Notes: generated by a model from the letters alone, not told the origin. Shown: positions 18,482-58,199, counted from the stretch's first letter. The stretch is 64,000 nt of DNA from a bacterium (GCA_963675755.2 CAXXMD010000002.1:1056001-1120000); one strand, 5' to 3'. A program made the numbers and translations.

Positions 18482-20140
18482 TTAATCTATAACGACAACA
18501 TCTTTATCAACATTCTCACCACATTGAATTACCGGCTTTTTATCCATAAACATATCCCCTTGCAGTTTAATATTTTTACTTTTTTCTCCATCAACATGAA
18601 TTTCAAAATTTTCCGGTAAAGGTACATACAATTGTGAGAATGAAATATTTTCACCCTGCATAATTTCTATTATTGGATTTTCTTTTACATTCAAAATTGT
18701 GTTTTCAAATTTAATATTATCTGTGAAAATACATTTGACACCTTTTTCAGAACTCATTTTCATATTATTAAAATGAATATCTTTGATATATAACTCGGGT
18801 AGTCCGCGTATAAAAACCGAAGTTTCAGCATTTAAACTGGTAATGGTATCAAAATCAATATTGCGAAATATTGGCGTACCTTCATCAACTTTTGGTATAT
18901 CATCAACTAGACCAATATTTTCATAAAACAAATCAAACAAGATGGCCTCAAAAAGAACATCAATCATTTGAATATTTTGAAAATACATATTTTCTACAAC
19001 GCCACCCCGGCCTCTTATGCTTTTAAATCTCAAACCAACATCCGTGCCGATAAAAGTACAATCGGAAACCCAAACATTATTTACGCCACCAGACATTTCG
19101 CTGCCGGTGGTTACCCCTCCATGTCCATGATAGACTGTGCAATTGTAGATAATAATATTTTCGCTGGCGACACCGCGTTTACGGCCAAATTCATCTCTTC
19201 CCGATTTAATACAAATTGCGTCATCTCCCACATCAAAGCTGCAATCATAAAGCAGAACATTTTTAGAGGATTCCAGATCAATTCCATCACCATTTTGTGA
19301 AAACCAGGGGTTCCTTACAGTAATATTGCGAATAATTATATTTTCGCACAACAAGGGATGAATATTCCATGCCGGAGAGTTTTGAAAAGTAGGCCCATCA
19401 ATAAGAATATTTTTACTATTTACCAGTCTTAACAATACAGGTCTTAGAAAATCTCTGGCTGGGAGATAATCTTCAATCTTGACATCAGGTTTATTCTCAA
19501 GAGAACGAATATATTCAGCACCCTGCATGGCACCTGGTGAAGGCCACCAAATATCACCATCCTCCTGAACTACGCCGCCAGATTCTTTTAATGCATTCCA
19601 TTGCTTAAAAGTCATTTTAAATCTTTTAACAGGGCGCCATGCACCACCAGAACCATCAATAATACCGGAACCGGTTATGGCAACATTTTCCGCATCTACG
19701 ATATTTATTGGGCTTGTACTACGCACTTGTTCCAGGCCTTCAAAGGAACTGTGAACCAGAGGATAATCACTTAAATCCTTACTAAATAAAAGCACAGCAC
19801 CTTTTTCCAAAAACAATTCCATATTACTTTTTAAATTGATAGGTCCAGTCAACCAGATTCCTTCCGGAACCAATATCCTGCCCCCTCCTGCTTTTTCACA
19901 ATCATCAATAGCTTTTTCAAATGCTTTTGTATTCTTTTCCAATCCGTTTCCGGTTGCATTGTAATCTAAAATATTGAATTCTTTTTCCGGAATGGAAGGT
20001 TCATAAATATCTCCCATTTCAAATGGAACCGGACCGGTTTCAGCTAATATCCATTCGGTTAAATTTTCAGTAAAACCAGCTGAACTGAAAAATATAAAAA
20101 TCAATACTACAAAATTTATTATGACATGTTCTTTTCTCAT
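18482..20140 (-). CDS. GH28 polygalacturonase-family glycoside hydrolase
   Basis: NGDGID, GDDAICIKSG, GHGG..GSE, RFKS motifs; signal peptide, no CTD. Confidence 0.93.
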   Translation of the reverse strand: MRKEHVIINFVVLIFIFFSSAGFTENLTEWILAETGPVPFEMGDIYEPSIPEKEFNILDYNATGNGLEKNTKAFEKAIDDCEKAGGGRILVPEGIWLTGPINLKSNMELFLEKGAVLLFSKDLSDYPLVHSSFEGLEQVRSTSPINIVDAENVAITGSGIIDGSGGAWRPVKRFKMTFKQWNALKESGGVVQEDGDIWWPSPGAMQGAEYIRSLENKPDVKIEDYLPARDFLRPVLLRLVNSKNILIDGPTFQNSPAWNIHPLLCENIIIRNITVRNPWFSQNGDGIDLESSKNVLLYDCSFDVGDDAICIKSGRDEFGRKRGVASENIIIYNCTVYHGHGGVTTGSEMSGGVNNVWVSDCTFIGTDVGLRFKSIRGRGGVVENMYFQNIQMIDVLFEAILFDLFYENIGLVDDIPKVDEGTPIFRNIDFDTITSLNAETSVFIRGLPELYIKDIHFNNMKMSSEKGVKCIFTDNIKFENTILNVKENPIIEIMQGENISFSQLYVPLPENFEIHVDGEKSKNIKLQGDMFMDKKPVIQCGENVDKDVVVID

Positions 20141-20147
20141 AAGTTCC

Positions 20148-21299
20148 TCAATAAACGTCCGAATCTAAAACATCATGCTCAATTGAATTTTTCTCCAACC
20201 AGTGTGGGTAATCATTGTTTAACAATGAAGCGGGCCAATAACCTAACCAGCCATATTCATTTCTACGCTCACTAGAAATTTCGGACAACTCTGTATAAAT
20301 TTTACCATCCCTGTCACTAAAAAAAGGACGGTTATCATTGATATTATAAAATCTGGCCCAAAGTGGAGGTGCATAATCATCATGGATCACTATCCTGTCA
20401 AATCCTGTTGGGCTTTCAGAGTCAGGTTGTTCAATAATCCGTTTCTGTTCTATCCTGACTTTGTGTAACCAGGTAATACCTGATTGAATAGATGTAACAA
20501 TTTCTTTTGAAGGATTCTCAATAGTCATTAAAAACCGCAAAATCCCGACAGTTGCCTTGCCGCTTATAGATACAAGCTCATAACTTCTTGCCTGTCTGGG
20601 TTCCAGCGTTCTTTCATCATATTGAGCGCACCAACCTGTTAATTCCCCATTAACCTTGATTTGACTTTCCAGTATACAATCTATTCCTTTGTCGATAGCC
20701 TTTTTAGCCTTGCTTTTTCTGCTTTGATCAACAAAAGAAAATTGCTCATTATGAACCGTTTCATTCAGTAAAAAAAGAATACCGGTCATTGCATCATCAT
20801 TAAAAGTGATATGTGAATAATATCCCCTTCTCAATGGATAATATTGCGGCCAGCCCCCATTATCATATTGAGCTGCTAAAATATAATCCAGGCCTTTTAA
20901 AAAGGCCAAAACATAACGATGATCACCGGTATAACGATATATTTGGGCAAGAAAAAAAAGCTGGGTATAGGTTGCACCATTATCAAAAGTTGCCAGCATT
21001 TCATTGGGATATTCAGCAAATCGATTCATAACCTCACTGCTCAATTCAACTGAATAATCCACATTCTTGGGCCATCCCCCCGAATCACGTTGATAAACAA
21101 GAACCCGTTCTGCAATTTGTTTTGCATCATTTGAACGGAACCATTCTGTATCATGGTCCATAAAAAATGCCCATAAATTTGATTGAACTGTCTTGTCAGC
21201 GTATACCAATTGATTGATTTCATTCGTACTATTGGCAAACGAAAAAATTGGTAATATCAAAAAAATCAAAACAATTATTTTTTTTATCAACGAATCCAT
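20148..21299 (-). CDS. PL10 pectate lyase (PelA-type)
   Basis: GGWPKN, TFDNGAT, GGWPQYYP, TFNDDAM, WCAQYD, ARSYE, WARFY. Confidence 0.92.
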   Translation of the reverse strand: MDSLIKKIIVLIFLILPIFSFANSTNEINQLVYADKTVQSNLWAFFMDHDTEWFRSNDAKQIAERVLVYQRDSGGWPKNVDYSVELSSEVMNRFAEYPNEMLATFDNGATYTQLFFLAQIYRYTGDHRYVLAFLKGLDYILAAQYDNGGWPQYYPLRRGYYSHITFNDDAMTGILFLLNETVHNEQFSFVDQSRKSKAKKAIDKGIDCILESQIKVNGELTGWCAQYDERTLEPRQARSYELVSISGKATVGILRFLMTIENPSKEIVTSIQSGITWLHKVRIEQKRIIEQPDSESPTGFDRIVIHDDYAPPLWARFYNINDNRPFFSDRDGKIYTELSEISSERRNEYGWLGYWPASLLNNDYPHWLEKNSIEHDVLDSDVY

Positions 21300-21334
21300 T
21301 AAAAAAGCAGACCTTGTCTAAATCATTCAAAACA

Positions 21335-21370
21335 AAATAAACAGGGGCAAAAGCAAAACTTTTGCCCCTG
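21335..21370 (-). terminator. Intrinsic terminator inside the pectin locus
   Basis: 12-bp stem CAGGGGCAAAAG/CTTTTGCCCCTG, then TTTATTTT on the minus strand. Confidence 0.8.
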
Positions 21371-21377
21371 AACTCGA

Positions 21378-24300
21378 TTATTTCAACAACATCATTTTAT
21401 TAACTTTGGTAAAGTTATTGACTTCCATCCGGAAAAAGTAAAGACCGGATGAATAGTTTGCAGCGTTAAAAGATACCTGATATCGGCCGGCACCATACTG
21501 ACGATCAGCAAGCACTGCTACCTGCTGTCCCAGTGTGTTATAGATGGTAATCTTGACACGACCAGCTTCAGGCAACTGGAATGGAATCACTGTAACAGGA
21601 TTAAACGGATTCGGATAATTCTGTTTCAGATCATATGTTTGAGGTACGGTAGATTCAGTATCATAAGTGATAGCAGTATTAATTTTATCCACATACAATT
21701 CTTCAGGAATAGGTTCACCTTCATCCGGGCCATATGCGCCAGATAGATCAAGAATACACCAATCCATATATCCACCAATAGCATCTCCGGATCCATCACC
21801 AACTTTGATATAATTATCACTGTTAGACTCGCCGGATACACCTACCATAAAAGGCACAGGATTTTCATCGATATAGATTGTCGAAGTATCACCACTTATT
21901 GCAACACGGATGGTGTGCCATTCATACAGACTGAAATCACCTTGTACTTCAACACTGGATTTTTCCAGTTCAAGAGTGCTGTCTGCACCCCATATACGCA
22001 ACTCGTCACGTGAGCCAACATTTGCATTACGCCATTGCAGATCAAAGATACGGTCATAGGTAGAATCTGCCTCACCTTTGATTCTGGCAATCATGGTATA
22101 TGCTTTTTCACCATAACCTTCGGGGAAACTGTAACGGTACATACGTGTTCCGTTTGGCTGCAGATATTTGAATATCTTGTTGCCTTCAATATCGGGATCA
22201 TCAATAATCTCTTCAACCATATCCGCACCTGGTGCATCCTGACTCAGATCAGAAAGATCAAGGGTACAGATACTGGTATCAGAATCCGTTGGTAATACAC
22301 TTGCATCATATACCATCCAGCCGGGTTCAATAGGTGCAATATAAGGATCTACATAGATGCCTTCAGGAATTGCAAGGCCATCATTTGCACCATGTGCACC
22401 ATAAAAATCTACCATAATCCAGTCCAGATAACCACCAATGGCATCACCTGAACCATCACCAATTTTAATATAGGTATCGCTAGAAGTTTCAGTAGAACGT
22501 CCGGCAATATAAGGTGTTGAACGTTCATCAACAAAGACTGTTGCAGAATCACCACGTACTTCAATACGATAAGAGTGCCAACTGTACAAATTCAAATCAA
22601 CTTTAACTTGTACATCCGCTTTTTCAAGTTCAAGTGTGCTGTCTGCAGGCCAAATACGCAGTTCTTCACGGCTGTTGGCATTACCATTTCGCCATTGAAT
22701 ATCAAACACACGGTCATAAGCTACATGGTTTATGCCTTTCAGACGTACGAAAATGGTAAAAGATGAATCGGTAAATGTTTCAGCAAAACTGTGACGGTAC
22801 ATTTTGGTACCATCGGGCTGCAGATATTTCAAGACTTTATTACCTTCAATTTCTGCATCATCCGAAATTTGTTCAACAAAAGTTGTTCCGGGGGCATCCT
22901 GGCTCACTTCAGAGAGATCCAGGGTATCACCATTGCTGGTTGTTTCAGATGGTAAAATACTGGCATCATATACCAGCCAATGTGGAATTTCAGGTTCAGG
23001 GCCTGTATCAACCTGAAGATAACCGGGAACCGGTAGTCCCGCACCTGGAGCATAAGCACCGGAAACATCCATAATAAACCAATCAACATAACCACCGATT
23101 GCTTCACCAGAACCATCACCAATTTTTACATACTTGTCAGTACTTGCGGATTCAGAAACACCCGAAAGAACGGGTTGATCATTTTCATCAAGGTATATAT
23201 CTGCCTTGTCGCCGGTTACAACAATTCTGAATGTATGCCATTCATAAAAATCAACATCCAGTTTAATGCTAATATCTGCTTTTTCAAGCTCAATAGTACT
23301 GTCTACAGGCGAAACGCGAAGTTCTTCACGGGTACCTGCATTACCGTTTCTCCATTGAACATCAAAGACGCGGTCGTAGGTTTCCGGATCATTTTCGCCT
23401 TTCATACGGATCAGCATGGTCAAAGTAGAATCCGTGTAGCTTTCATCCAAATAATGACGATACATGGTTTTACCATCGGGATGCAGATATTTCAAAAGTT
23501 TATTCTCGGCAATATCAGGATCATCAACAATTTCCTGGATAAAACCTGCACCGGGAGAATTATCACTTACACTTGTAAGATCAAGGGTATCTCCTCCACC
23601 ATCAGTAAACTCGGGAAGTACACTTGCATCATATACCAACCAACTAGGTACATTGTTTTCCTGACCGTCTACAAAAAGAGTTTCAGGAATTTCCAAACCT
23701 TCTCCAGGAGCAAAAGCACCCGCTTTATCAAAAATAACCCAATCAACATAACCACCAATAGCATCACCGGAACCATCACCAATCTTGATGTAATTATCAC
23801 CACTGGTTGAACCGGAAATACCAGTTAGCACAGTAATGGGATTTTCATCAATGTACAAAGTTGCTTCATCGCCATTAACAGCAATACGATAGGTATGCCA
23901 TTCGTAGAGGTTCATATCAACTTTAATCTCTACATCAGCTTTTTCCAATTCAATGGTGCTGTCAGCAGGCCAGATACGTAATTCATCACGGCTGTTGGCA
24001 TTTCCATTGCGCCATTGTAAATCAAATGCTCTGTCATAAACCGAGCCAGTATCTGCTTTAACACGTGCAATCAATGTAAATGCAGAATCAGTATAACTTT
24101 CTTCAAAATAATGACGATACATGGTTTTACCATCAGGGTGCAAATATTTCAGTAATTTGTTACCGGAAATATCAACATCATCAATAATTTCCTGAATAAA
24201 ACCGGCACCTGGGGAATTATCACTCACACTGGTAAGATCAAGTACATCTCCACCTACTCCTGTTTCAGAAGGTAGAACACTGGCATCATAAACCAGCCAT

Positions 24301-25028
24301 TTTTGTACATCATCCATTAAACCATCAACATAATAGTCTTCAGGAAAAGCAGTTCCTTCACCGGGGGCATAAGCACCACTGTTGTCAAAAACAACCCAGT
24401 CAACATAACCGCCAATAGCATCACCAGAGCCATCACCAATTTTGATGTAATTGTCACCACTTGTTGATGTAGAAGCACCGCTAACAACAGCAATAGGAGC
24501 TTCATCAACGTAAACAGTAGCTTCATCACCATTTACAGCAATTCGGTAGGTATGCCATTCATAGAGATCCATATCAACTTTGATCTCAACATCTGCTTTT
24601 TCCAACTCGATAGTACTATCAGCAGGCCAGATACGTAATTCATCACGGCTATTGGCATTACCATTACGCCATTGCAGGTCAAACGCGCGGTCATAAACCG
24701 AACCCGTATCCGCTTTTACGCGTGCAACCAGGGTAAAAGCAGAATCCGTATATGCTTCATCAAAATAATGACGGTACATGGTTTTACCATCGGGATGAAG
24801 ATACTTTAAAATTTTATTACCCGTGATTGCAGGATCATCAATAATTTCCTGGATAAATCCTTCACCGGGTGAATCGTCACTGACACTTGTCAGATCGAGT
24901 ACATCACCGCCAGTTCCCGTTTCAGACGGCAACACACTTGCATCGTAGGTTAACCATTGTGCCTGTAACTGCGTTACGGCAAACAGCATCATTACGACAG
25001 CTAGTAGTACCAACCCTTTACTTTTCAT
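21378..25028 (-). CDS. Secreted 1216-aa protein: five tandem ~220-aa lectin/ConA-like domains plus CTD
   Basis: Signal peptide; five copies of WxxYDASVLP...WRNGN...WHTYRI...IKIGDGSGDAIGG; NYPNPFNP...KMMLLK. Confidence 0.85.
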   Translation of the reverse strand: MKSKGLVLLAVVMMLFAVTQLQAQWLTYDASVLPSETGTGGDVLDLTSVSDDSPGEGFIQEIIDDPAITGNKILKYLHPDGKTMYRHYFDEAYTDSAFTLVARVKADTGSVYDRAFDLQWRNGNANSRDELRIWPADSTIELEKADVEIKVDMDLYEWHTYRIAVNGDEATVYVDEAPIAVVSGASTSTSGDNYIKIGDGSGDAIGGYVDWVVFDNSGAYAPGEGTAFPEDYYVDGLMDDVQKWLVYDASVLPSETGVGGDVLDLTSVSDNSPGAGFIQEIIDDVDISGNKLLKYLHPDGKTMYRHYFEESYTDSAFTLIARVKADTGSVYDRAFDLQWRNGNANSRDELRIWPADSTIELEKADVEIKVDMNLYEWHTYRIAVNGDEATLYIDENPITVLTGISGSTSGDNYIKIGDGSGDAIGGYVDWVIFDKAGAFAPGEGLEIPETLFVDGQENNVPSWLVYDASVLPEFTDGGGDTLDLTSVSDNSPGAGFIQEIVDDPDIAENKLLKYLHPDGKTMYRHYLDESYTDSTLTMLIRMKGENDPETYDRVFDVQWRNGNAGTREELRVSPVDSTIELEKADISIKLDVDFYEWHTFRIVVTGDKADIYLDENDQPVLSGVSESASTDKYVKIGDGSGEAIGGYVDWFIMDVSGAYAPGAGLPVPGYLQVDTGPEPEIPHWLVYDASILPSETTSNGDTLDLSEVSQDAPGTTFVEQISDDAEIEGNKVLKYLQPDGTKMYRHSFAETFTDSSFTIFVRLKGINHVAYDRVFDIQWRNGNANSREELRIWPADSTLELEKADVQVKVDLNLYSWHSYRIEVRGDSATVFVDERSTPYIAGRSTETSSDTYIKIGDGSGDAIGGYLDWIMVDFYGAHGANDGLAIPEGIYVDPYIAPIEPGWMVYDASVLPTDSDTSICTLDLSDLSQDAPGADMVEEIIDDPDIEGNKIFKYLQPNGTRMYRYSFPEGYGEKAYTMIARIKGEADSTYDRIFDLQWRNANVGSRDELRIWGADSTLELEKSSVEVQGDFSLYEWHTIRVAISGDTSTIYIDENPVPFMVGVSGESNSDNYIKVGDGSGDAIGGYMDWCILDLSGAYGPDEGEPIPEELYVDKINTAITYDTESTVPQTYDLKQNYPNPFNPVTVIPFQLPEAGRVKITIYNTLGQQVAVLADRQYGAGRYQVSFNAANYSSGLYFFRMEVNNFTKVNKMMLLK
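21688..24956 (-). repeat. Five tandem intragenic repeats of 657-663 bp
   Basis: The first Trp codon of each unit starts at 24956, 24299, 23642, 22979 and 22319. Confidence 0.92.
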
Positions 25029-25102
25029 TACTCCTCCTTTTTAGAAATTAAATTTGTCTACCCATTTTATTTAATTCTATTATTATCTTTTCCGGCAGGA
25101 TG

Positions 25103-26122
25103 TCAAAAAGCAACACCTATTGAAAAACGGTTCACATTTTGGAACACCTCAAACTCCGAATAAGAGTAATCAAATGAAATCTTGTAACCACTGAAACCGG
25201 TTGCCAAACCCAAACCACATGACCAGGAAGCAATATCCTGGTTGGTCTGATAACCTCCGCGAAACGAAATACTTTTCATAAAAACATATTCAAGACCAAA
25301 ATTGGCCCGTTCTGTATAGTTATTGGGATGCAGAAAATCAACTGCAAGCATCAATTCATTTTTATCATTTCTCAACGCGGGAAATACCTGAAAAATATCC
25401 ATTGCAGCACCCATGGTAAATAACAAGGGTAAGGGTTCATATACTTTTTCGCGTTTGAGATTTGAAGAAAAATTGCGAATAGCCATTCCAAAGCGCAGGC
25501 TCTTTAAACCAGTGTAATATTTTACACCGGCATCAAAAACCAGCTTTACCGCTTTATTTTCTATCGTTTCACCGGTAGAAAAAGTATTGCTGCCCAAATT
25601 GTGCTCAACATAACGCAGATTTCCACCAATAAGGAAACGATCACTGATAGCGCGTCCATATGTCAAACCGATTGCTATTGCACCAACATCATCCAGGGCT
25701 CCGTCATCTCTGTACCCCAGAGGATACATGCTGCTCTCTGCCTCTGTAATTAAGCTGGTTCCGTTGATTGTACCGTAATCAACCCAAAGCACACTCAGAC
25801 CAAAAGAACCCATATTGCCTGCATTCCAGACAATGGCATCTGCCATGTAATTAATATCCGCAATCCAACGAGTATCACACATTTTAAAATCAAAGCGGGA
25901 CGGAGATTCAACAATACCCGCAGGATTAAAAAATATACTTTCTGCACCTTCGCCAACTGCAATAAATGTTTCACCCAAAGCTGCCGCCCGGGGAGAAACA
26001 TTGACCAGCAAAAAGTTCATGGTGCTCTGACCAACCTTTTTCAACCCCACTTGCGCCGTAGCAACCGTACTGACTGCAAGCATGATGACCAGGTTTAGCA
26101 GGATTAATTTATATAGTTTCAT
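25103..26122 (-). CDS. PorV/PorQ-family (FadL-like) outer-membrane beta-barrel
   Basis: FLLVNVSPRAAALGE...SIFFNPAG N-terminal motif; amphipathic strands; terminal Phe. Confidence 0.85.
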   Translation of the reverse strand: MKLYKLILLNLVIMLAVSTVATAQVGLKKVGQSTMNFLLVNVSPRAAALGETFIAVGEGAESIFFNPAGIVESPSRFDFKMCDTRWIADINYMADAIVWNAGNMGSFGLSVLWVDYGTINGTSLITEAESSMYPLGYRDDGALDDVGAIAIGLTYGRAISDRFLIGGNLRYVEHNLGSNTFSTGETIENKAVKLVFDAGVKYYTGLKSLRFGMAIRNFSSNLKREKVYEPLPLLFTMGAAMDIFQVFPALRNDKNELMLAVDFLHPNNYTERANFGLEYVFMKSISFRGGYQTNQDIASWSCGLGLATGFSGYKISFDYSYSEFEVFQNVNRFSIGVAF

Positions 26123-26143
26123 TAATGTCTCCTTGCTTCCGAA

Positions 26144-28306: not shown

Positions 28307-28344
28307 ATAAACTCCATCCCATTTTAATATCGAACTCGATTAAA

Positions 28345-31300: not shown

Positions 31301-31596
31301 TCAAGCGAAACCATAAGGTCTTTTTTTACCTGGGTTTCGTATCCCATCATGGTTGCTCTGACAGTATATTTTCCTACCGGAACGTTAATAATGATAAAAC
31401 GTCCATTCAGGTCTGTCGCGGCACCCAAATTGGTCCCTTCAATCATCACATTGGCACCAGCCAATGGATCACCGGTGCCCGCTTCTTTAACGGTACCGGC
31501 AATTCGACTTCGGGTTTGAGCAAAACCAACACTGCTTATAAAAAGTATAAGCAGCAAAATTACCGGGACCCGTTTAATGAAATGATTTTTTAACAT
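28345..31596 (-). CDS. TonB-dependent receptor with N-terminal carboxypeptidase-regulatory-like domain
   Basis: IAGTV..PLAGANV...GAATDLNGRF; plug IRGG...GGYNAEYG...SGLINVTTKSG; SPRIG; NPNL.P; C-terminal PRDIWFGLRFNF. Confidence 0.92.
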   Translation of the reverse strand: MLKNHFIKRVPVILLLILFISSVGFAQTRSRIAGTVKEAGTGDPLAGANVMIEGTNLGAATDLNGRFIIINVPVGKYTVRATMMGYETQVKKDLMVSLDRRAEVNFSLSSQVLQGSEVVVLAEKDQLHVEVSNTQLVVSDVQLQDATGIREINSFLSKLPGVSENNGYLTIRGGSADQTGMMVNGLSYMNAAVGNAETSIPLSAVEQVSLLSGGYNAEYGNFRSGLINVTTKSGTHDGYHGTVQFSMDNSHIRRFGPSFYDPNSPALRPLLDPKVAFVGTEEAWKDNDYLREQHLSFMGWNTAAQIYNMGKEPEDQATPLDYYLLAAWMHMAEPDYEGLAELGYTVSDEHKKLFAEHKMQEDGSDWNFDGGFGGPVPLIGKMLGNATFYISNNSRERHYVMPVTLRSEKTYTTLATMKAQPSENLSLTFNGLMKYQEGISPIRPAWGDFPDASREGGFMPINNVKYVYKNPDYWYDQPFFPILKQKTMMGGLTVNHILNPTMFWELTLSALNIKNDTPTGNTRDNTILTYFGPFPVSEMPYGKMQYGTNELDGYEYPSYDALPGLSRRFRRKEGDLYDNTSTSQYRAKFELTSQFGSNHYAKAGFEYNYMDLDHQHWQKWNENYYNVYEFNYHRTPSQTGFFIQDQMSYSQIVANVGLRFDYYYGGGGKWPSGDAYNVEMFTPQNFAEDSVLFDYLEQGRSYIWDLWEAYDKEHPGFLQPIENHFTVSPRIGVSFPITVNSKFYFNYGHFRSNPPYSTMYLYRYRYTKNGLYDMANPNLAPPRTISYELGAALNVLDSYVVKLSGYSKDVTGENGDVNYKNSEGIDYDFWMNNQYEDIQGFELNISKQDNSWINGWLNFNYMLKKSGLTGREEYTEEDVLDDREGLYEGQETRSLPIPQLNANVTFRSPFSFGPEIMGSSPLGGWNITFFAEWEAGDYFTWNPLDEPYVNDNMRWPSFYMVDLKIAKTFKVANINTTFYVDVSNVFNIKNSIMHRGYAFEYVSGQDLDERSDFINYMASLRLPEYDSPKYDNLREQHEGYYLPGDDKIGDLRSDDKPYINDPINTYWLYGQPRDIWFGLRFNF

Positions 31597-31641
31597 TTAT
31601 CTCTCCCTTGAACAAGTACAACTTACCTGTTCTGACAACCA

Positions 31642-33312
31642 TCATCGAATTAATTGCATTTTTATAATTTTAGAGCTTTTTCCGTAACGTAAATATGCAA
31701 AATATAATCCCGAGCTCACCTGTACATTATTTTCATTTGTACCGTTCCAATTCAGCTCATAAGCACCATTATTATGAAAACCTTCAGATAGTTTCTTAAC
31801 CAGTCGTCCTCTTACATCATAGATGCCCAGTGAGATATAATCCGGGGTTGGTATGCTAAAGGAAATAGTTGTAACAGGATTAAATGGATTGGGATAGTTT
31901 CTCAACAGTACAAGACTTGTTGGCACAGTTGCTTCTCTAATATCTGTAGTTGAATTGGGAACCAGGCTATTGATATAATTTTCCAACATGGTATAACCAT
32001 TATCATCAACTATGTTGCGATCGGTATCATCATTAGGATTCAGGTTATTTTTCAATTCCCAATCATCCGGTATGCCATCGTGATCAGAATCAACCGGTGC
32101 GGCAAGACTGGATAAAACCGGCCATCCACCAACATCATTCTGGCTGTCAATTATACCACGAATAATTGATGTATCTGACAAGTTTTGAATTTCTTCATAT
32201 CCCGGACCTTCAAAAGTTGCTGTTCCGGATTCAACTTCTGAGATAATTCGAGCATCTATAGGGTCTCGTGCAGGCAAAGTTGCGCCAACATCCGCCAATA
32301 CACTGAGGAACGCCTCTTCTGCTGTTTGAGTGGTAACTGTAGTAAATGGAAAAGGTTCATCAACACCTATGATGGATTTAACGGCAGAACTTCCTTGAAC
32401 TCCGCCAGCCCAATTGTCGTTTGTGATATTAGGTGAACCAACAACATAATTATCTTTAATATACCATCTTCCTGCAGTACCTGAAGGTTCACAAATTCTG
32501 TATTTAACACTACTTTTGGTAGCCGGACCGGATTTATAATAGTTGGCTATCATGTTAATTGTACCGGCTTCACCGCCATAAGCACTGTTAAATCCCCAAT
32601 TATAGATCACATTGTTGCGATAGTCTACATTCTTGCAGGTTGAAGTCTGACCGCCGGCAAATCTTGGATTTCTGCTGGAATGATGCGCAAACAAGTTGTG
32701 ATGAAAAGAAGCATCTTCTCCACCCCAAATGCCTCCGTAACCATGTGCACCTTTGGAATGATTAGAGTTGTACAAGCTTTCAGAGATTAAACACCACTGA
32801 ACGGTAAGACTGTCAATTCCGTAATAGGACAATCCTTCATCCACACTCCAGCTTGCAGAACAATGATCAAGGATTACACTCTTGCAATAACGCCCCCAAG
32901 TAGCATCAGACTCTACTCCGGATTCATCACCCAGACGAAACCGTATATAACGAATGATTACTTCATTATGGTTTACATACAAGGTATGGTCTTTGATGCA
33001 AATTCCATCACCCGGTGCAGTTTGGCCGGCAATGGTAATATAGGGGCTTTTAATTTTAAGATCAGATTCCAATGCAATGGTGCCTGATACGCGAAACACT
33101 ACCGTTCTGGGTCCACTGGCTTCAATAGCTTCCCGTAAACTGCCGGGACCACTATCATTCAGATTGGTTACTTCATAGACATCTCCACCACGACCACCTA
33201 TTGTATACATGCCCGCGCCTTCAGCGCCCGGGAAAGCAGTTACCCGGGCGTATATGAAGGAAGAAAAAATCAACAAAAATGATATTATATATTTAGTCAA
33301 ATTGAATTTCAC
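31642..33312 (-). CDS. PL1-family pectate lyase with CTD
   Basis: AFPGAEGAG..GGRGG, TIAGQTAPG, DHCSASWSVDE, RNPR, DSDHDGIPDDWE; NYPNPFNP CTD. Confidence 0.9.
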   Translation of the reverse strand: MKFNLTKYIISFLLIFSSFIYARVTAFPGAEGAGMYTIGGRGGDVYEVTNLNDSGPGSLREAIEASGPRTVVFRVSGTIALESDLKIKSPYITIAGQTAPGDGICIKDHTLYVNHNEVIIRYIRFRLGDESGVESDATWGRYCKSVILDHCSASWSVDEGLSYYGIDSLTVQWCLISESLYNSNHSKGAHGYGGIWGGEDASFHHNLFAHHSSRNPRFAGGQTSTCKNVDYRNNVIYNWGFNSAYGGEAGTINMIANYYKSGPATKSSVKYRICEPSGTAGRWYIKDNYVVGSPNITNDNWAGGVQGSSAVKSIIGVDEPFPFTTVTTQTAEEAFLSVLADVGATLPARDPIDARIISEVESGTATFEGPGYEEIQNLSDTSIIRGIIDSQNDVGGWPVLSSLAAPVDSDHDGIPDDWELKNNLNPNDDTDRNIVDDNGYTMLENYINSLVPNSTTDIREATVPTSLVLLRNYPNPFNPVTTISFSIPTPDYISLGIYDVRGRLVKKLSEGFHNNGAYELNWNGTNENNVQVSSGLYFAYLRYGKSSKIIKMQLIR

Positions 33313-33350
33313 AATATTCCTCTCAGCATCTCTTAATCGATATCAAACTA

Positions 33351-34718
33351 CTATTCAAGCAGAGTCATTTTCTTGGTCATTACACCATTTGGGGTTTCAA
33401 GACGATAGAAGTAAATGCCAGATGGCAATTCTTTGGCTTCAAAAGTAACCTTGTGTTCGCCTGCTGCCATTCTGCCGTTAACCAACTGTGCCACACGGTG
33501 TCCCAGCAAATTGTAAACATTCAATATAGTTTGTCCATCTTTAGCAAGTGAGAATTGAATGCTGGTTTCAGGATTAAAGGGATTGGGGTAATTTTGTTTC
33601 AATGCCATGGTTTGAGGCAGTGTTTCTGCATTATCATCTTCAATTGCGGTTGCATTTGTTGCCCAACGAGGATCACCGATGGCTCCACCGTCTGAGGCAT
33701 ATGTTAACAATGCTGAACCGGCAGGTAATGTAAAATCACCATTATCGGGATCAGCAAATTCAGGATCAACAGCCAAAGTATCAGATACAGGATGATCACG
33801 CCAGTTGCGCGCACCTACATCCCACAAACAAATATTATTGATAACTGCCTGTTCCGGAGTTACGGTTTCTTTGATATTGATAACAACCTTGTCTTTATTG
33901 AGCTGTTTTACACAAATAGAGTTACTTACCTGCCATTGGCCCAGGTGTGGACCTTTTTCGCATAGAATAACTTCACGACCATCTTCAGTACCAATGTTAT
34001 ACCAGGTGGTGTGGTCAATAACAACCGATGGTGTATTCAAGGGGAAATTGCTCTCAACAGGGCCAGCTACGCGAAAACCATAACTATTAATCGTATTAAA
34101 AGTAGAATTAGTTAAAGAAATAAAATTGGCACCACAGTATTTATAGTATATAGAAGTACCCGTGTTTTCCATAATTACATTATCTACAAAAGTAGAATCT
34201 ACAATAACATTACCGCGCATATCTGAACCACCTGCGGCAATAACGTCACTGATAAAATCATGAATGTAACAATTTTCTACTCTGATTTTATTAATAGTAG
34301 CTTCGGCTGGGGTTTCACCCATGTAAAAGGTAATCAGATAATCTGCACTGGGAGCACTACTGAAAGAACCATCAATTTCAAGATTCCTTAATGTTAAAGA
34401 GGCATTATCACCCACTTCAAAAAAACGAATGGTACTTTCACCATCGGGGGGAGTTTGAATTTTCAATATTGCTTTAGAAGCTGCGGCATCACCACCTTCA
34501 ACATCAATCGTAATATTTTTGTCTACAATGGTACCAAAAATATACCCTGTTGATTCGGTGTATTCACCTTCAGGTACCAGTTCAAGCACATCTCCATCCT
34601 GAGCATCTGTAAGGGCCTGGGTTAAGGTACCTTCACCTGGAAATACGGTAACAACATTTTGTGAAAAACCAACTGCAGTGAATGCAATCAAACATACAAT
34701 AACTAACCAATTCTTCAT
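33351..34718 (-). CDS. Secreted beta-helix protein (DUF5123-like C-terminus) with CTD
   Basis: Beta-helix periodicity; DPEFADPDNGDFTL...IGDPRW; NYPNPFNP...KMTLLE. Confidence 0.7.
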   Translation of the reverse strand: MKNWLVIVCLIAFTAVGFSQNVVTVFPGEGTLTQALTDAQDGDVLELVPEGEYTESTGYIFGTIVDKNITIDVEGGDAAASKAILKIQTPPDGESTIRFFEVGDNASLTLRNLEIDGSFSSAPSADYLITFYMGETPAEATINKIRVENCYIHDFISDVIAAGGSDMRGNVIVDSTFVDNVIMENTGTSIYYKYCGANFISLTNSTFNTINSYGFRVAGPVESNFPLNTPSVVIDHTTWYNIGTEDGREVILCEKGPHLGQWQVSNSICVKQLNKDKVVINIKETVTPEQAVINNICLWDVGARNWRDHPVSDTLAVDPEFADPDNGDFTLPAGSALLTYASDGGAIGDPRWATNATAIEDDNAETLPQTMALKQNYPNPFNPETSIQFSLAKDGQTILNVYNLLGHRVAQLVNGRMAAGEHKVTFEAKELPSGIYFYRLETPNGVMTKKMTLLE

Positions 34719-34810
34719 TTCTCATTCCTCCGTAATATTTATGATTATTGATATTTAATTCAGGTATCATAAAATCCTGACAAACATTACAGTGGAATAT
34801 AATATGAAAA

Positions 34811-34830
34811 GCAGGATTTGTAAATCCTGC
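34811..34830. terminator. Palindrome: terminator of the HTCS gene or an operator
   Basis: GCAGGATTT-GT-AAATCCTGC, followed by TTTT on the minus strand. Confidence 0.55.
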
Positions 34831-34833
34831 TCA

Positions 34834-34871
34834 GTTCAGAAAAGGTTCAATATTGTTCAAACGGGGTATAA
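34834..34871 (-). promoter_or_regulatory. Candidate HTCS (AraC-type) binding site
   Basis: Direct repeats 21 bp apart (minus strand TTATACCCCGTTTGAAC / TTGAACCTTTTCTGAAC, 11/17 identical), ~30 bp upstream of a TATTAT/TATATT -10-like box at 34796-34804. Confidence 0.6.
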
Positions 34872-34899
34872 ATGCGTATTTTGTGGTATTTTGAGGGTT

Positions 34900-37800
34900 C
34901 TATTCTTGAATCTCTGTTTCAGACTCTCGATATTCAGAGGGGGTTTTGCTGTATTCCTGCTGAAAGCAGGTACTAAAATATTTGGGATATTTGAATCCAA
35001 CCCGGTATGCAATTTCACTAACTGTAAAATCGGTTTTGTGCAGCATCTGCGCAGCCTTTTTAAGACGAACAGCTTTAATGAATTCCTGTGGAGAATACCC
35101 AATCAATTCCTTTAATTTCATAAACATCATGGTTCGGCTTACACCAACATGATAAGCAAGATGATTCACACCCAATTCCGGATCAGATAAATGTTCTTCA
35201 ATATAATCCCGTATCTGTACAAGCATTTTTTCATCATGAGAAAACGGTGTAACCTGAGAAGGTTCAATAATGAGTTCTTTGCGATAACGTTCCTGTAACA
35301 TTTTTCGGGATTTTAACATGTTGGTTACACGGGCATCAAGAAACCGAAAATGAAAAGGTTTCTCAATATAATCATCTGCGCCAAACTCCATACCCTGGAT
35401 TTTATCTTCGACCTCACTTTTAGCAGAAAGCAATATTATAGGTATATGACTTGTAGAAATTTCACCTTTTAATCTTTTACACAATTCAATACCATCTATT
35501 CCCGGCATAACTACATCGCTTATAATAAGGCTAGGCATACGGGATTCTGCAAGTTCAAGGCCCATGTTACCATCGGGGGCATCAATAACATCATACTTTT
35601 TGGACAACTGTTTTTTTAAATACGCCCGCATTTCCGGATCATCTTCTACAAGCAGTAATAAAGTTCGTTTATCATTTTCATCATTAGAATCAAACTCTTG
35701 TTCTCTAATATCCCAAATTTCTTCGATATCAGATACATTTAAATTTGTCAAATGGTTAGCACCATTCCCAACATGATGCATTTCCAATTCCGCCAAATGG
35801 TCCGTACCAAATGGAAGTTTAACTGTGAATTCACTACCTGATTCTTCCGAGCTTTGAACGAGCAATGTTCCGGAATGCAGCTCTACAAACTTTTTGGATA
35901 AAGCAAGCCCTAATCCTGAACTTGCCTGTCCCTGTCTATACCCACCCTTGGCATTGTAAAAACGCTCAAAAATGTGAGGCAAATCCTCTTCACTAATCCC
36001 TTTTCCAGTATCACTCACTTTGATCATAATAAAAGATTTTTCATTCTCGGTCTGATTTTCAATGCTGACTTTGATATAACCATAATCAGGTGTATATTTA
36101 AAGGCATTATCAATCAGGTTCACCAAGACTTCTTCCAACTTGGACCAGTCAAACCATCCTTCAATTGTATCCTGATCTATATTCAATTCATAATCAATAT
36201 GGTGCTTTTTAGCGGTTTCGGAAAACAATTCATATATACGGCGTACAAATTGAATCAGATCCCCTTTTGTAGTTTCAAGGGGCATTTTGCCATGTTCAAC
36301 ACGTCTGAAACAGAGTAATTGTTGTACAAGACGCATAAGATAACGTACATTTCGATACATTAAACCCATCTCATCTTTATGCTGATCACCTTTATTAGCA
36401 GCAAGCATCTCTTCAAGGGGAGCCTGTATCAATGTGAGTGGGGTTTTAAACTCGTGTGCAATATCAGTAAAAAACTGGAGTTTAAACTGGTTCATTTCTT
36501 TAGCCTTTTTACGCTCCAGTCTTTCCAACTTTAATTCATGTTTAACGTTGATCAAAGCAAAAATATAAGCGTTGATACCATAAATCAAACCAATGCCAAC
36601 AATACCATAAATTAAATAAGCCCATATGGTTCGGCTAAATGGCCGGGGTATATAAATATTCAAAGAAGCTCCGGTTTCATTCCATACGCCGTCGCTGTTT
36701 GAACCTTTAACTTTAAAAGTATAATGGCCGGGATCAAGGTTGGTATAATTGGCAAACCGTCTGGTCCCGGTATAGTTCCATTCCTGCTCAAAACCCTCCA
36801 GAATATAGGCAAATTGGTTCTTTTCAGGAGAAATATAATCCAGCGCTGCAAATTCAAGAGATATCTGATTTTTATCAAAATCGAGACGTAACGTATCATT
36901 TCCCTGTACATAGGGGAATACACTTTTATTCAAAGGTTTATTTAAAACATTGATATTTGTAATAACAATGGGCGGTATAAGAGGATTGGCCATTTTCTCT
37001 ACATAATCCGGAAAAAAAGCGTTAAATCCGTTATTGCCGCCAAAGAACAACTCGCCGGTTTTGCTCTGAAAGCAGGAACGGTTCCAAAACTGGTTTCCCT
37101 GCAAACCATCCTGTACATCATAATTTGTAAATTTTTGTTCATTACTTTCAAATTTGGATATTCCATTGGTTGTACTCAGCCACAAATTTCCATTTGTATC
37201 TTCTACTATACCGGCAATTACATTACTGGGCATGCCATCTGATTTATCAAAACGGATAAAATCATCATTTTCTGAATTATATTGATTCAATCCCTTACGC
37301 GTTGCAATCCATAAACGGTCTTGAGAATCCTGAAAAATGTACTGGATAAAGTTACTGCTGAGACTGTTTGAAAAATTAGCATCAGCGCGATAATGGGTAT
37401 AACTATTATCAACTGGATTAAATGCTACCAGACCGGATCGCAAGTACCCGATCCAGAGTATTCCTTGTTTGTCAAAACAGATAGATACTACAGATTCATC
37501 ATCAAGTACACCGGTTGAATCAAATTCCACTGGTTTAAAGATACCCGTACTTTTTTCAAAATAAATCACCCCTCCATTTGTTCCCAGCCATAATCCCTCC
37601 TCATCTTGCTGCAAAATCGCATTGATAAAATTATTTCCGGTAATAGGAGTAATTGTTACATAATATCTATGGAACATGCCATTTTCGATATTAAATTTAT
37701 TGAGACCTTCTTTTGTACCCGCCCAAATTGTACCGGTATTGTCTTCCAATATACAGGTAACCTGATTACTGCTAATGGTAAATGAATTGTTAACATTATA

Positions 37801-39000
37801 AACATAATGCGAGACAGTTTGGGTAGCCCGGGAAAAGCTTACCAAACCTTCACCCTCTGTTCCTAACCACAAAGTACCTTTAGAGTCTTCTGCAATGGAG
37901 AGTACCGTACTGTTTATAAATTCAGTACCATCATTTAAAAGAGTGCCATAAAATTCAAACTTTTTTGTATTACGGTAAAAGCTGTCAATGCCGCTGCCAT
38001 CCATTCCCAGCCAGATTACACCACTGCCATCCTGATAAATGATTCTGGCACTGTTGCTGCTAAGACTGGAAGGATCATTGGCATCTGCTAAATAAGCATG
38101 AAAACTTTTAGTTTTGCGGTCATATTGATTCAGACCACCATGCATGGTTGCAATCCAAAGATTTTCTGATTCATCTTCAAAAATATCTTTAATTTCATTA
38201 CTGACAATACTGGAAGGATTACTGGGATCATTGGTATAGGGAACAAAACTCCCGGTATAAGGATTATGAACCTGAATTCCATCATAACGGCTGCCAATCC
38301 AAATATCACCAAAGCTGTCCTGAAAAATTGAGGTTATTCTCTTTTCATCACCTTCACTTGCATAATGTGTGAGTTTATTGCGTTGATTGTTTATCTTGTA
38401 AACATCATTAGAAGTGCCCAACCAGAGGTTACCGTCACGATCTTCAAGGATTTCAGTTATATTTTCATTAAAAACCGGGCTGTTTGTATCCAATGGATTT
38501 GTATGAAAAGCAGTAAAACTTTCTTTATCTTTATTAAATATTACCAATCCACTTCGGGTACCTACCCAAAAAATACCATTATGATCGATCAAAAGCGCAC
38601 GAACAAAATTATCATTCAGACTGGTAGGGTCATCATTATCCTGAAGCCATTGATCAAAAGACTCGGTTTCATAATTGAATCGATTTAATCCCCCACCTTC
38701 AGTACCAATCCACAACTGTCCCTCATCATCCTGCATGATACAGCGAATCCAATCTGAAGAAATTGAAGTCGAATCAAAAATATCATGACCATATACAGCA
38801 AAATTATAACCATCAAACCGATTCAAACCATCCTGTGTACCAAACCATAAAAACCCGTAACTGTCCTGAAGTATACAATCCACCCTGCCATCAGACAATC
38901 CGTTATTTATAGTCAGATGATCAAATGTCATTCTTTCATTCTGAGAAAAAGCTGTAATATTCAGAAATAATAAGAGTATGAAAATGGAAAATTTATTCAT
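34900..39000 (-). CDS. Hybrid two-component system sensor-regulator
   Basis: Repeated DxxGxLWIGT propeller blades, Y_Y_Y (YTNLDPGHY), TM, HEFKTPL, NAFKYT, SSGLGL, REC (SDVVMP), AraC HTH. Confidence 0.95.
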   Translation of the reverse strand: MNKFSIFILLLFLNITAFSQNERMTFDHLTINNGLSDGRVDCILQDSYGFLWFGTQDGLNRFDGYNFAVYGHDIFDSTSISSDWIRCIMQDDEGQLWIGTEGGGLNRFNYETESFDQWLQDNDDPTSLNDNFVRALLIDHNGIFWVGTRSGLVIFNKDKESFTAFHTNPLDTNSPVFNENITEILEDRDGNLWLGTSNDVYKINNQRNKLTHYASEGDEKRITSIFQDSFGDIWIGSRYDGIQVHNPYTGSFVPYTNDPSNPSSIVSNEIKDIFEDESENLWIATMHGGLNQYDRKTKSFHAYLADANDPSSLSSNSARIIYQDGSGVIWLGMDGSGIDSFYRNTKKFEFYGTLLNDGTEFINSTVLSIAEDSKGTLWLGTEGEGLVSFSRATQTVSHYVYNVNNSFTISSNQVTCILEDNTGTIWAGTKEGLNKFNIENGMFHRYYVTITPITGNNFINAILQQDEEGLWLGTNGGVIYFEKSTGIFKPVEFDSTGVLDDESVVSICFDKQGILWIGYLRSGLVAFNPVDNSYTHYRADANFSNSLSSNFIQYIFQDSQDRLWIATRKGLNQYNSENDDFIRFDKSDGMPSNVIAGIVEDTNGNLWLSTTNGISKFESNEQKFTNYDVQDGLQGNQFWNRSCFQSKTGELFFGGNNGFNAFFPDYVEKMANPLIPPIVITNINVLNKPLNKSVFPYVQGNDTLRLDFDKNQISLEFAALDYISPEKNQFAYILEGFEQEWNYTGTRRFANYTNLDPGHYTFKVKGSNSDGVWNETGASLNIYIPRPFSRTIWAYLIYGIVGIGLIYGINAYIFALINVKHELKLERLERKKAKEMNQFKLQFFTDIAHEFKTPLTLIQAPLEEMLAANKGDQHKDEMGLMYRNVRYLMRLVQQLLCFRRVEHGKMPLETTKGDLIQFVRRIYELFSETAKKHHIDYELNIDQDTIEGWFDWSKLEEVLVNLIDNAFKYTPDYGYIKVSIENQTENEKSFIMIKVSDTGKGISEEDLPHIFERFYNAKGGYRQGQASSGLGLALSKKFVELHSGTLLVQSSEESGSEFTVKLPFGTDHLAELEMHHVGNGANHLTNLNVSDIEEIWDIREQEFDSNDENDKRTLLLLVEDDPEMRAYLKKQLSKKYDVIDAPDGNMGLELAESRMPSLIISDVVMPGIDGIELCKRLKGEISTSHIPIILLSAKSEVEDKIQGMEFGADDYIEKPFHFRFLDARVTNMLKSRKMLQERYRKELIIEPSQVTPFSHDEKMLVQIRDYIEEHLSDPELGVNHLAYHVGVSRTMMFMKLKELIGYSPQEFIKAVRLKKAAQMLHKTDFTVSEIAYRVGFKYPKYFSTCFQQEYSKTPSEYRESETEIQE

Positions 39001-42714: not shown

Positions 42715-42975
42715 ATTCCAACCTACCTTTACTACAAGTCTTGACAATTTGTCAAGTAAAAAATGAATTTATTAGCAAAAAAATTGTATTTTGCTACACA
42801 ATATTACGAAATTTAAACGTTCAAGTCAATAAAAAAATTGAACAATCGTTCATATTCTAAACTCATTCCGGGATGGAATTTACATTAAAAAATTTGGGTT
42901 AATAAAAAATATCAATTGAGCCGCAATAAACAATTCCCTATATTTATAAAGTTTAAAAAGAAAGGACCTTGACTA

Positions 42976-48655: not shown

Positions 48656-49006
48656 CACGTATGCTGTTTTCATTATCAGTACCGGTAATTTTTCCACCCA
48701 ATTTATCAATTTTACAGCAGTATTACAAAACAATTGACAATAAATTATTATATTTAATAGGTACTTTTTTCTAATTTTGCAGAACCAATTCTAATCTTTC
48801 ATAATAAAGACCACCCGAGTTTGCTCACATGAAAGTTTCTAAAGTATACTATCTTTTAAAATCAGTCAAAAGCCAGTAAATTATCAGATTTATTAAAAGC
48901 ACTAATAACTATACAAAAAAACAATTGAATTTGAAATTACCATTATGTATTGTATAATATCAAATATATAGGGAAAAAATGTTACAACCGAAATAAGAGG
49001 TGTAAT

Positions 49007-56012: not shown

Positions 56013-58199
<2,187 letters not shown>

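Follow-up and report, generated by a model that had tools for sequence, protein, structure and literature searches.

A candidate pectin utilisation locus without SusD, built around a conserved receptor, partner and PorV-family barrel module

Introduction

How does a bacterium whose genome encodes no SusD capture polysaccharides at its surface? What is understood of glycan capture in the FCB group comes almost wholly from the SusC/SusD pair, and several abundant environmental phyla degrade polysaccharides without SusD, with large TonB-dependent receptors (TBDRs) that have, to our knowledge, no known partner. The question is raised by a locus at positions 18,482 to 39,000 of a 64,000-nucleotide stretch of bacterial DNA (GCA_963675755.2, CAXXMD010000002.1:1056001-1120000), which was analysed as a whole and is referred to as the window. 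In this locus, genes for pectin-degrading enzymes and for a hybrid two-component system (HTCS) accompany three adjacent genes, which encode a TBDR, a 720-residue protein named P720 here, and an outer-membrane barrel of the PorV/PorQ family.

On balance, the evidence leans towards a locus for the utilisation of homogalacturonan (pectin), carried by an FCB-group bacterium that lacks SusD and has a type IX secretion system (T9SS). At this locus P720 would be tethered by a retained C-terminal domain (CTD) on its cognate barrel and would capture substrate for the receptor. That the trio constitutes a conserved module is well supported, and the role of P720 as a tethered partner is moderately supported. 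The host appears to be KSB1-like, judging by the names of the nearest matches. A preliminary description of the DNA had proposed a mechanism of this kind, with a T9SS-type cargo held beside the transporter by a PorV paralogue in place of a lipid anchor, and the analysis leaves that mechanism plausible and partly supported.

Conservation of the three-gene module

The three genes stand side by side on the minus strand of the window, in the order TBDR (28345..31596, 1083 residues), P720 (26144..28306) and barrel (25103..26122, 339 residues). A scan with one genome per species returned 310 stretches encoding relatives, and the best 80 loci, with flanks limited to 10 kb, were analysed; they belong to KSB1, Calditrichia/Caldithrix, Fidelibacterota, Neomarinimicrobiota, Melioribacteraceae/Ignavibacteria and Kryptoniota, with Melioribacter and Rosettibacter primus as cultured carriers. 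A receptor gene lies directly upstream on the same strand in 70 of the 71 loci with at least 300 nucleotides of room, a barrel gene lies directly downstream in 78 of the 79 loci with at least 400 nucleotides, and the full trio recurs in identical order in 68 of the 70 loci with enough flank on both sides. The two misses are technical: at locus L028 the match is split, with the receptor ending at 9876 and the P720 match starting at 10001, and at locus L071 only 520 nucleotides of downstream flank are available. The order of the trio is kept in at least six phylum-level lineages, at 43-65% identity, and the synteny among relatives that the preliminary description had singled out for a survey was thereby found. 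Within the phylum of the window itself, a P720 relative at E <= 1e-30 occurs in 84 of 121 sampled genomes, a tally that takes in one unpublished genome (G083), and in 71 of the 100 high-quality ones.

Pectin-active enzymes frequently accompany the module in these relatives. The PL1-like lyase is present in 43 of the 80 loci (aligned over at least 300 residues, and directly upstream of the TBDR in many), GH28 in 33 and PL10 in 17, and any pectinase is found in 46 of the 58 loci of at least 15 kb. An orthologue of the HTCS was seen in six of the 80 loci, a scarcity that may be due to the 10-kb flank limit.

The module is also multiplied within the host genome (6.48 Mb, 98% complete), where tblastn and open reading frame (ORF) calling revealed eight canonical copies, consisting of a receptor, a protein of 685-766 residues and a barrel of 337-392 residues, and four variant copies, in which the middle protein has 1194-1279 residues or the order is altered. 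Their neighbours include a second pectin/rhamnogalacturonan set with two GH28 genes, one GH43 gene and an AraC-type regulator, a pair of GH2 and GH5 genes, a starch-type set (LacI, two GH13, SSF symporters), a sulfatase and sugar-type regulators, and some copies have no obvious neighbouring gene for a carbohydrate-active enzyme (CAZyme). At the starch-type locus (C2:432755-440681), LacI and GH13 genes are followed by a TonB receptor, a 1279-residue CTD protein, a PorV-family barrel and a further CTD protein, and then by a GH13 gene with DUF4961 and two SSF symporters, the same design replacing SusC/SusD. Pairwise similarities of the three trio proteins correlate across 11 modules (Spearman rho 0.69-0.73, from 55 non-independent pairs), and to judge by the sequences the trio was evidently duplicated and diverged as a unit.

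These counts bear on the simplest alternative, in which the barrel would be a channel of the FadL type, or a T9SS protein of general function, that lies here by chance, and the trio would be no functional unit. The barrel does belong to a FadL-like PorV family with varied roles, and BamG of the Bacteroidota BAM complex is described, in the part of PMC12578637 drawn on here, as a FadL homologue with a role outside the T9SS. Such a loose neighbourhood is nevertheless hardly credible in view of the 12 copies in one genome, the constant order across phylum-level lineages and the predicted interface, for which the controls scored zero (see below). Given its recurrence in this genome and in the related loci, the arrangement exceeds chance.

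Fold, relatives and conservation of the partner protein

P720 begins with a signal peptide and matches no Pfam family. Its AlphaFold2 model, built from a 33-row alignment, has a predicted local distance difference test (pLDDT) of 83.0 and a predicted TM-score of 0.83, and consists of an almost entirely beta region (residues 34-455), a long helix (459-487), an FN3-like domain (about 500-580) and an immunoglobulin-like (Ig-like) CTD (617-720). Alignment with VIA-align identified residues 34-492 as a galactose-mutarotase-like beta-supersandwich of the type present in the N-domains of GH94, GH116, GH15 and GH65 enzymes, a fold that serves in many proteins for holding carbohydrate chains. The closest matches were 4zle_A of GH94 (Z 16.6, root-mean-square deviation (rmsd) 3.3 Å, 246 aligned residues) and 7w2t_A of GH116 (Z 16.6, 4.2 Å, 283 residues), followed by 1lf6_A of GH15 (Z 15.5, 3.5 Å, 234 residues) and 7fe3_A of GH65 (Z 14.7, 3.6 Å, 237 residues). 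The CTD aligns with that of PorZ (5m11_A) at Z 11.1, with an rmsd of 2.7 Å over 86 residues and 23% identity, and the C-terminus has a weak match of 24.1 bits to the PorZ tail model of NCBIfam. The domain assignment rests on VIA-align; Foldseek with the whole model returned mostly tandem FN3 matches with low TM-scores. A T9SS-type CTD on a body without the SusD fold had been anticipated for this protein, and the model agrees. SusD identity itself can be ruled out for P720, as its all-beta model differs from the alpha-helical tetratricopeptide-repeat (TPR) fold of SusD and neither a SusD match nor a lipobox is present.

Searching 1.84 billion cluster representatives with the N-domain (phmmer) yielded 208 proteins at E <= 1e-3, 88 at E <= 1e-10 and 15 at E <= 1e-30, mostly of 690-760 residues with the domain at the N-terminus and some of 1200-1600 residues. 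Fused forms, sought as P720-related proteins of 1261-3600 residues at E <= 1e-10, did not appear, which is weak evidence. The closest named relatives come from candidate division KSB1 (71% identity), all named homologues are annotated as 'hypothetical protein', and one copy at 97% identity lies on a 6.5-Mb chromosome of a metagenome-assembled genome.

The most conserved parts of P720 are the CTD and the helix 459-487, with mean pairwise identities among 51 sequences of 0.67 and 0.69, compared with 0.51 for the N-domain. The neighbouring lyase presents the opposite pattern, its type-A CTD being less conserved than its catalytic domain (0.41 versus 0.58, 32 sequences). Among the paralogous middle proteins of the host genome, the CTD retains 0.3-0.7 bits per residue in most pairs, and the remainder, at 0.05-0.1, is no longer alignable. 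The eight P720 paralogues share 35 invariant columns, which keep the scaffold of the N-domain while its loops vary.

This fold also invites the suggestion that P720 is an enzyme, namely a new pectin-active lyase or hydrolase on a supersandwich scaffold displayed beside the transporter, and not a binding lid. The supersandwich does occur inside enzymes, since the PL26 structure 5xq3 (Z 12.0) and GH174 fucanases (Z 12.6 for 9k1g, and 10.5) are among the fold neighbours, and the alginate lyases 3a0o and 9irq match the N-domain at Z 11.0 and 10.5; furthermore, many D, H, Y, R and W residues are invariant among orthologues, five of which, all in the N-domain (D209, Y247, R256, D264 and D311), are kept in all eight paralogues. 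Against this, the P720 family profile finds no sequence relative among solved structures in the Protein Data Bank (PDB; best E 0.26), no catalytic family of Pfam or NCBIfam matches, and the fold is matched best by N-domains without catalytic function, those of the GH94, GH15, GH65 and GH116 enzymes. The paralogues stand beside quite different CAZymes with only the scaffold kept, and all 30 feature matches of the N-domain in the ESM Atlas are clusters of 'hypothetical protein' without a common Pfam family, three of them (0.93-0.94) being commonest in Zixiibacteriota, Fidelibacterota and Gemmatimonadota, matches that serve as leads only. A clear catalytic site, about which the preliminary description had asked, was not found in P720 by these comparisons. 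A catalytic role for P720 seems rather improbable, and a carbohydrate-holding partner is preferred.

The PorV/PorQ-family barrel and its predicted complex with P720

The 339-residue barrel exceeds the cut-off of the family model NF033709 (172.9 bits versus 90; 172.7 bits in the genome-wide search) and fails both equivalog models, with 57.8 bits against a cut-off of 250 for PorV (NF033710) and 88.9 against 220 for PorQ (NF033711). Its scores lie somewhat nearer to PorQ than to PorV, and its profile matches PorV of Flavobacterium johnsoniae (6h3i_F) at E 1e-7. The host genome contains 21 PorV-family genes above the cut-off, 12 of which sit in TBDR modules; its best PorV candidate (C2:903673-904749) narrowly misses the cut-off of 250 with 240.2 bits, and its best PorQ-like match (C2:2135750-2136403) reaches 143 bits. 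As a PorV candidate exists elsewhere in the genome, the barrel of the locus is an extra paralogue. The notion of a locus-specific PorV paralogue consequently holds as regards family membership and association with receptors, with the qualification that, by these scores, the protein is neither PorV nor PorQ proper.

Regarding the known members of this family, PMC10202324, in the sections drawn on here, presents PorV as a shuttle and PorP/SprF proteins as PorV-like barrels for specific substrates; it further states that PorZ keeps its CTD for binding PorQ and that the PorU CTD stays on PorV, and suggests that cognate PorV-like barrels may shield CTDs from cleavage.

The complex of barrel residues 24-339 with P720 residues 495-720 was predicted using a 51-row alignment for each protein. 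Three runs scored 0.92, 0.92 and 0.91, the best of three controls scored 0.00, the pLDDT of the partner was 79-80, and at least 95% of the contacts were common to the runs. In the calibration of this score, which holds roughly with user alignments, 116 of 157 solved complexes and two of 215 mismatched pairs pass the mark. On P720 the predicted interface comprises residues 624-640, including the invariant motif IVPNPYNI.D, as well as 660-669, 689-703 and the last strand, 711-720. On the barrel it comprises 27-40, 116-127, 174-191 and 222-232, together with further segments about 45-50 residues apart, a spacing that would fit alternate loops on one face of the modelled barrel. Both sides are enriched in columns that are at least 90% conserved (barrel: 33 of 62 versus 66 of 254 elsewhere, p 5e-5; P720: 26 of 51 versus 53 of 175, p 0.006). 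An interface had been named beforehand as decisive for the proposed module, and one is predicted here between the CTD of the partner and the barrel.

Such an interface can be read in two ways, because the predicted contact is as compatible with transient shuttling as with permanent tethering. The barrel might be specific to P720 as its cargo and act as a shuttle or an adaptor for export, not as a permanent anchor, with P720 subsequently released or attached elsewhere as an independent glycan binder without a link to the receptor; the shuttling role of PorV and the substrate-specific PorP/SprF barrels provide the model for such an adaptor (PMC10202324, in the same sections). This alternative has difficulty with the receptor, whose linkage to P720 is as strict as that of the barrel, and with the co-divergence of three genes, which would be hard to explain if the pair alone worked together, and the general PorV candidate of the genome could shuttle ordinary cargo. 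An export adaptor is thus unlikely, though it is the most serious competitor of the tethered-partner reading, which remains preferred.

The receptor, the absence of SusD and the secretion system of the host

The receptor combines a CarboxypepD_reg-like extension (PF13715, 75.7 bits) with a Plug domain (PF07715, 36.5 bits versus a cut-off of 23.9), and the AlphaFold2 model built from a 37-row alignment (pLDDT 77.6) shows a barrel of the 22-strand type. Against the SusC family model TIGR04056 it scores 50.8 bits, with a cut-off of 368.25, and the match is confined to model positions 3-220 of 981, which correspond to the N-terminal extension and plug. In Foldseek, PhuR ranks first (E 5e-22), followed by FusA, FhuA and Cir (5e-22 to 1e-18), with SusC chains at ranks 11-50 (8aa4_A, E 6.7e-20). 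A kinship with SusC by fold was considered and rejected, since these matches do not distinguish SusC from other TonB-dependent transporters, including siderophore-type ones. By its sequence, the receptor lies outside the SusC family, although its size and N-terminal extension resemble those of SusC.

The two SusD families (PF07980 and PF14322) have no match in the host genome, with Bacteroides thetaiotaomicron serving as a positive control, so that the SusD profile search foreseen in the preliminary description came out as it predicted. At the locus itself its claim that neither a lipoprotein nor a SusD is encoded likewise stands: among 11 locus proteins no SusD family matches at E <= 0.01 (Pfam), and inspection by eye detected no lipobox cysteine ending the signal peptide of any of the nine proteins. 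A 492-residue TPR-repeat protein (41269-42747) is encoded in the same orientation two genes upstream of the HTCS gene and matches generic TPR families only. As a hidden SusD it was ruled out, with no SusD family match and no lipobox by eye.

Components of the T9SS are present in the host genome, with SprA and two PorU copies above their cut-offs. The SprA match (C3:1879556-1885587) is divided between two adjacent frames of 654 and 1456 residues meeting at 1881244/1881247, which cover model positions 8-612 and 614-2315, respectively, which points to one of three causes: splitting of the gene, a stop codon in frame or a misassembly. The two full-length PorU genes lie in tandem (C3:1311408-1318919; 884.4 and 877.3 bits, cut-off 420), and several partial PorU-like matches occur elsewhere.

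Gene content and organisation of the pectin locus

The ORF listing, Pfam and NCBIfam assign nine co-oriented genes on the minus strand to positions 18482-39000, in agreement with the preliminary description. The first encodes the HTCS (34900..39000, 1366 residues), with Reg_prop (205.8 bits), Y_Y_Y, HisKA, HATPase_c, Response_reg and HTH_18/AraC domains, all above their cut-offs. It is followed by a 455-residue protein with DUF4957 and DUF5123 (33351..34718; PF16318, PF17161) and a type-A T9SS CTD (PF18962; TIGR04183, 43.1 bits versus a cut-off of 23), which has orthologues in 14 of the 80 related loci (aligned over at least 300 residues) and whose earlier label of 'beta-helix' has a weak match to a PL6 lyase (E 5e-4) as its sole support. 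The next gene encodes a PelZ/PL1-like pectate lyase (31642..33312, 556 residues), which matches 9buj_A, a solved structure titled 'Pectate lyase', at E 6.4e-69 and the PelZ-like model NF041900 at E 1.4e-45 and carries a type-A CTD (TIGR04183, 27.9 bits); we take this PelZ-like enzyme to belong to class PL1, a label that the matches themselves do not carry.

Downstream of the trio is a 1216-residue repeat protein (21378..25028; PF06439, PF13385) with a type-A CTD (PF18962; TIGR04183, 36.9 bits). Its five concanavalin/3-keto-disaccharide-hydrolase-like, that is lectin-like, repeats of about 220 residues each (24-220, 243-439, 463-659, 684-879 and 897-1114) share 53-87% identity, and the protein is probably a multivalent surface glycan binder. 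The block ends with a PL10 pectate lyase (20148..21299, 383 residues; PF09492, 338.5 bits; TIGR02474, 318.1 bits versus 189.8) and a galacturonidase/polygalacturonase-like GH28 protein (18482..20140, 552 residues; PF00295, 121.4 bits), the nearest NCBIfam models of which, alpha-D-galacturonidase BT4155 (E 8.6e-86) and PglA (E 1.2e-67), are both matched below their equivalog cut-offs. The co-localised CAZymes (PL1-like, PL10 and GH28) and the dedicated HTCS by which a polysaccharide utilisation locus (PUL) is recognised are all present.

The nine genes may be transcribed as more than one unit. Their common orientation stands, and the intergenic gaps measure 7-78 nucleotides except for one of 181 nucleotides 3' of the HTCS gene; terminator-like hairpins on the minus strand, one at 34832-34809 in that gap and one at 21342..21370 between the repeat protein and PL10 (13-bp stem, seven G-C; a lead only), suggest up to three transcription units instead of one. 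In addition, a co-oriented gene just upstream of the HTCS gene was left out of the block. It encodes a right-handed beta-helix protein (39059..41098, minus strand, 679 residues; PF13229, 76.2 bits; NosD, 36.4 bits) and possibly belongs to the locus; no counterpart was seen in the related loci, whose flanks mostly stop short of its position. Apart from this gene, the locus is flanked by unrelated genes.

In six of the nine locus proteins the signal peptide ends in ...(F/A)(S/A)Q or ...AQ (AFSQ, GFSQ, GFAQ, AFSQ, ATAQ and LQAQ), so that a glutamine would be exposed after cleavage; this glutamine 'Q-rule' is given as Bacteroidetes-specific in the part of PMC5837995 drawn on here, and it appears in this case in a KSB1-like genome.

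Other features were noted elsewhere in the window. A minus-strand gene at 45452-48733 encodes a GH31 protein of 1093 residues with five PKD domains and a type-A CTD, a T9SS-displayed CAZyme outside the pectin block. A catalase-peroxidase-type gene (56016-58199), with PF00141 in two stretches, coincides with a 2-kb bin of GC content 0.495, whereas the remaining bins of the window range over 0.32-0.45, and may have been acquired horizontally. A 415-residue ORF (61342-62589), which overlaps the following ORF (62513-63745, RNase_H_2) by 77 nucleotides, has tRNA_SAD and DHHA1 as its only domains and matches the final part of the alanyl-tRNA synthetase core below the cut-off; it may be an AlaX-like editing protein that stands alone, or alaS in truncated form.

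Proposed mechanism and its significance

In the mechanism proposed for this locus, which the HTCS would turn on, the PL1-like lyase and the lectin-like proteins would be exported through the T9SS by means of their type-A CTDs and would cleave pectin and retain it at the cell surface, from which oligogalacturonides would enter through the large TBDR, with PL10 and GH28 completing the breakdown. P720 would likewise be exported by the T9SS, and its PorZ-like, unusually conserved CTD would stay uncleaved and dock non-covalently on the cognate barrel of the 14-strand type, by analogy with PorZ on PorQ and PorU on PorV. Such docking would provide a lipid-free outer-membrane anchor beside the receptor, and the supersandwich, through sugar binding and contact with the receptor, would present pectic oligosaccharides to it in the role of a SusD or surface glycan-binding protein.

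Several observations weigh against this reading, in addition to the enzyme-like fold neighbours and invariant residues of P720 and the compatibility of the interface with shuttling discussed above. The P720 CTD scores 18.4 bits against TIGR04183, below the cut-off of 23 that the other three CTDs of the locus exceed, and PF18962 does not match it, so that export by the T9SS is deduced from fold and context. In the DUF4957/DUF5123 protein, CTD and body are conserved to a similar degree (0.51 versus 0.49, 14 sequences), so that the contrast between P720 and the lyase does not extend to every CTD protein of the locus. Seven PDB entries (6h3i and six 8gl entries) contain solved PorV, some of which presumably show it with translocon and cargo, and the complex score may therefore partly reflect likeness to known PorV complexes and not this pair as such. 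The DNA of window positions 25000-33400 was listed in two sequencing runs of one study, neither of them an RNA run. Furthermore, neither terminator-like sites (14 versus 13.9 expected from shuffles) nor promoter-like sites (48 versus 57.4, sigma-70-type scan) are in excess in the window, and genes for an inner-membrane transporter or a cytoplasmic uronate pathway left no trace in it.

A broader interpretation is offered tentatively, and its probability is lower than that of the mechanism for this single locus. The trio might represent a general SusD-independent 'utilisome' of FCB phyla outside Bacteroidia (KSB1, Calditrichota, Fidelibacterota, Marinimicrobia, Ignavibacteriota and Kryptoniota), that is, a stable three-protein complex in which the uncleaved CTD is pinned to the small barrel, the barrel is packed on the transporter as BamG is on BamA, and the variable supersandwich sets the specificity, with one module per glycan. 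If this were true, machines for nutrient import would be assembled by way of the T9SS, and the lipoprotein lid of the SusD type would be one of two solutions.

A conserved partner and anchor module would explain how SusD-less phyla build surface capture machines, and would give a function to many of the multiplied PorV/PorQ-family genes. The role of the T9SS CTD would be widened from a secretion signal to a permanent, sequence-specific membrane anchor, and the combination of a transporter, an unannotated CTD protein and a PorV-like barrel would serve as a marker of polysaccharide loci in metagenomes. The orthologous loci of the cultured carriers Melioribacter and Rosettibacter make the idea directly testable. 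Full-text searches returned no description of the trio, with subscription journals and bioRxiv supplements outside their reach, and the genome paper of Caldithrix abyssi, in the sections drawn on here, mentions TonB-dependent receptors only for B12 and thiamine (PMC5317091).

Comparison with known systems

Among the systems in which a PorV-like barrel serves a single protein, type-B CTD cargo and PorP/SprF barrels, exemplified by SprB and SprF of F. johnsoniae, resemble the locus in pairing one cargo with one dedicated neighbouring barrel (PMC9143113 and PMC10202324, in the sections drawn on here). The locus differs from them in three respects: P720 has a type-A, PorZ-like tail with no CHU_C match, its barrel is a PorV/PorQ-family member, and a transporter is coupled with the pair.

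The closer likeness is to the PorZ-PorQ and PorU-PorV pairs of Porphyromonas gingivalis, as the prediction for the locus likewise places a T9SS-type Ig-like CTD on a barrel of the PorV/PorQ family; PorZ-PorQ is nearest, since the CTD of P720 is structurally closest to that of PorZ and the barrel scores higher for PorQ than for PorV. For those pairs, the relevant sections of PMC10202324 describe a CTD that stays on as an anchor, whereas the evidence for the locus pair is a predicted interface. Unlike these pairs, the barrel fails the equivalog cut-offs, the body of P720 is unrelated to PorZ or PorU, and the pair occurs 12 times in one genome, always with a TBDR in nutrient loci and not in secretion machinery.

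For the combination of a small barrel, a large barrel and a surface protein, BamG-BamH offers a structural precedent, in which a 14-stranded FadL-homologous barrel packs on the larger BamA and its loops hold the extracellular BamH (PMC12578637, in the part cited above). The machine and its proteins differ from the trio, the two are likened by architecture and not by sequence, and a packing of barrel on receptor in the present locus is a conjecture drawn from that analogy.

The SusC/SusD (RagA/RagB) PUL provides the functional counterpart. Here, too, a large TBDR with a CarboxypepD_reg-like extension lies amid CAZymes under an HTCS, the partner gene immediately follows the transporter gene, further surface glycan-binding-type proteins are encoded, and solved SusC chains (8aa4_A) are among the fold matches of the receptor. 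In contrast to such a PUL, the host genome lacks SusD and the receptor fails the SusC model. The partner is all-beta (supersandwich, FN3 and CTD) and has no lipobox, unlike the TPR lipoprotein with its alpha-helical fold, and the set includes a barrel gene as an obligatory third member. The trio with its partner-anchor design is probably a so far undescribed variant of PUL design.

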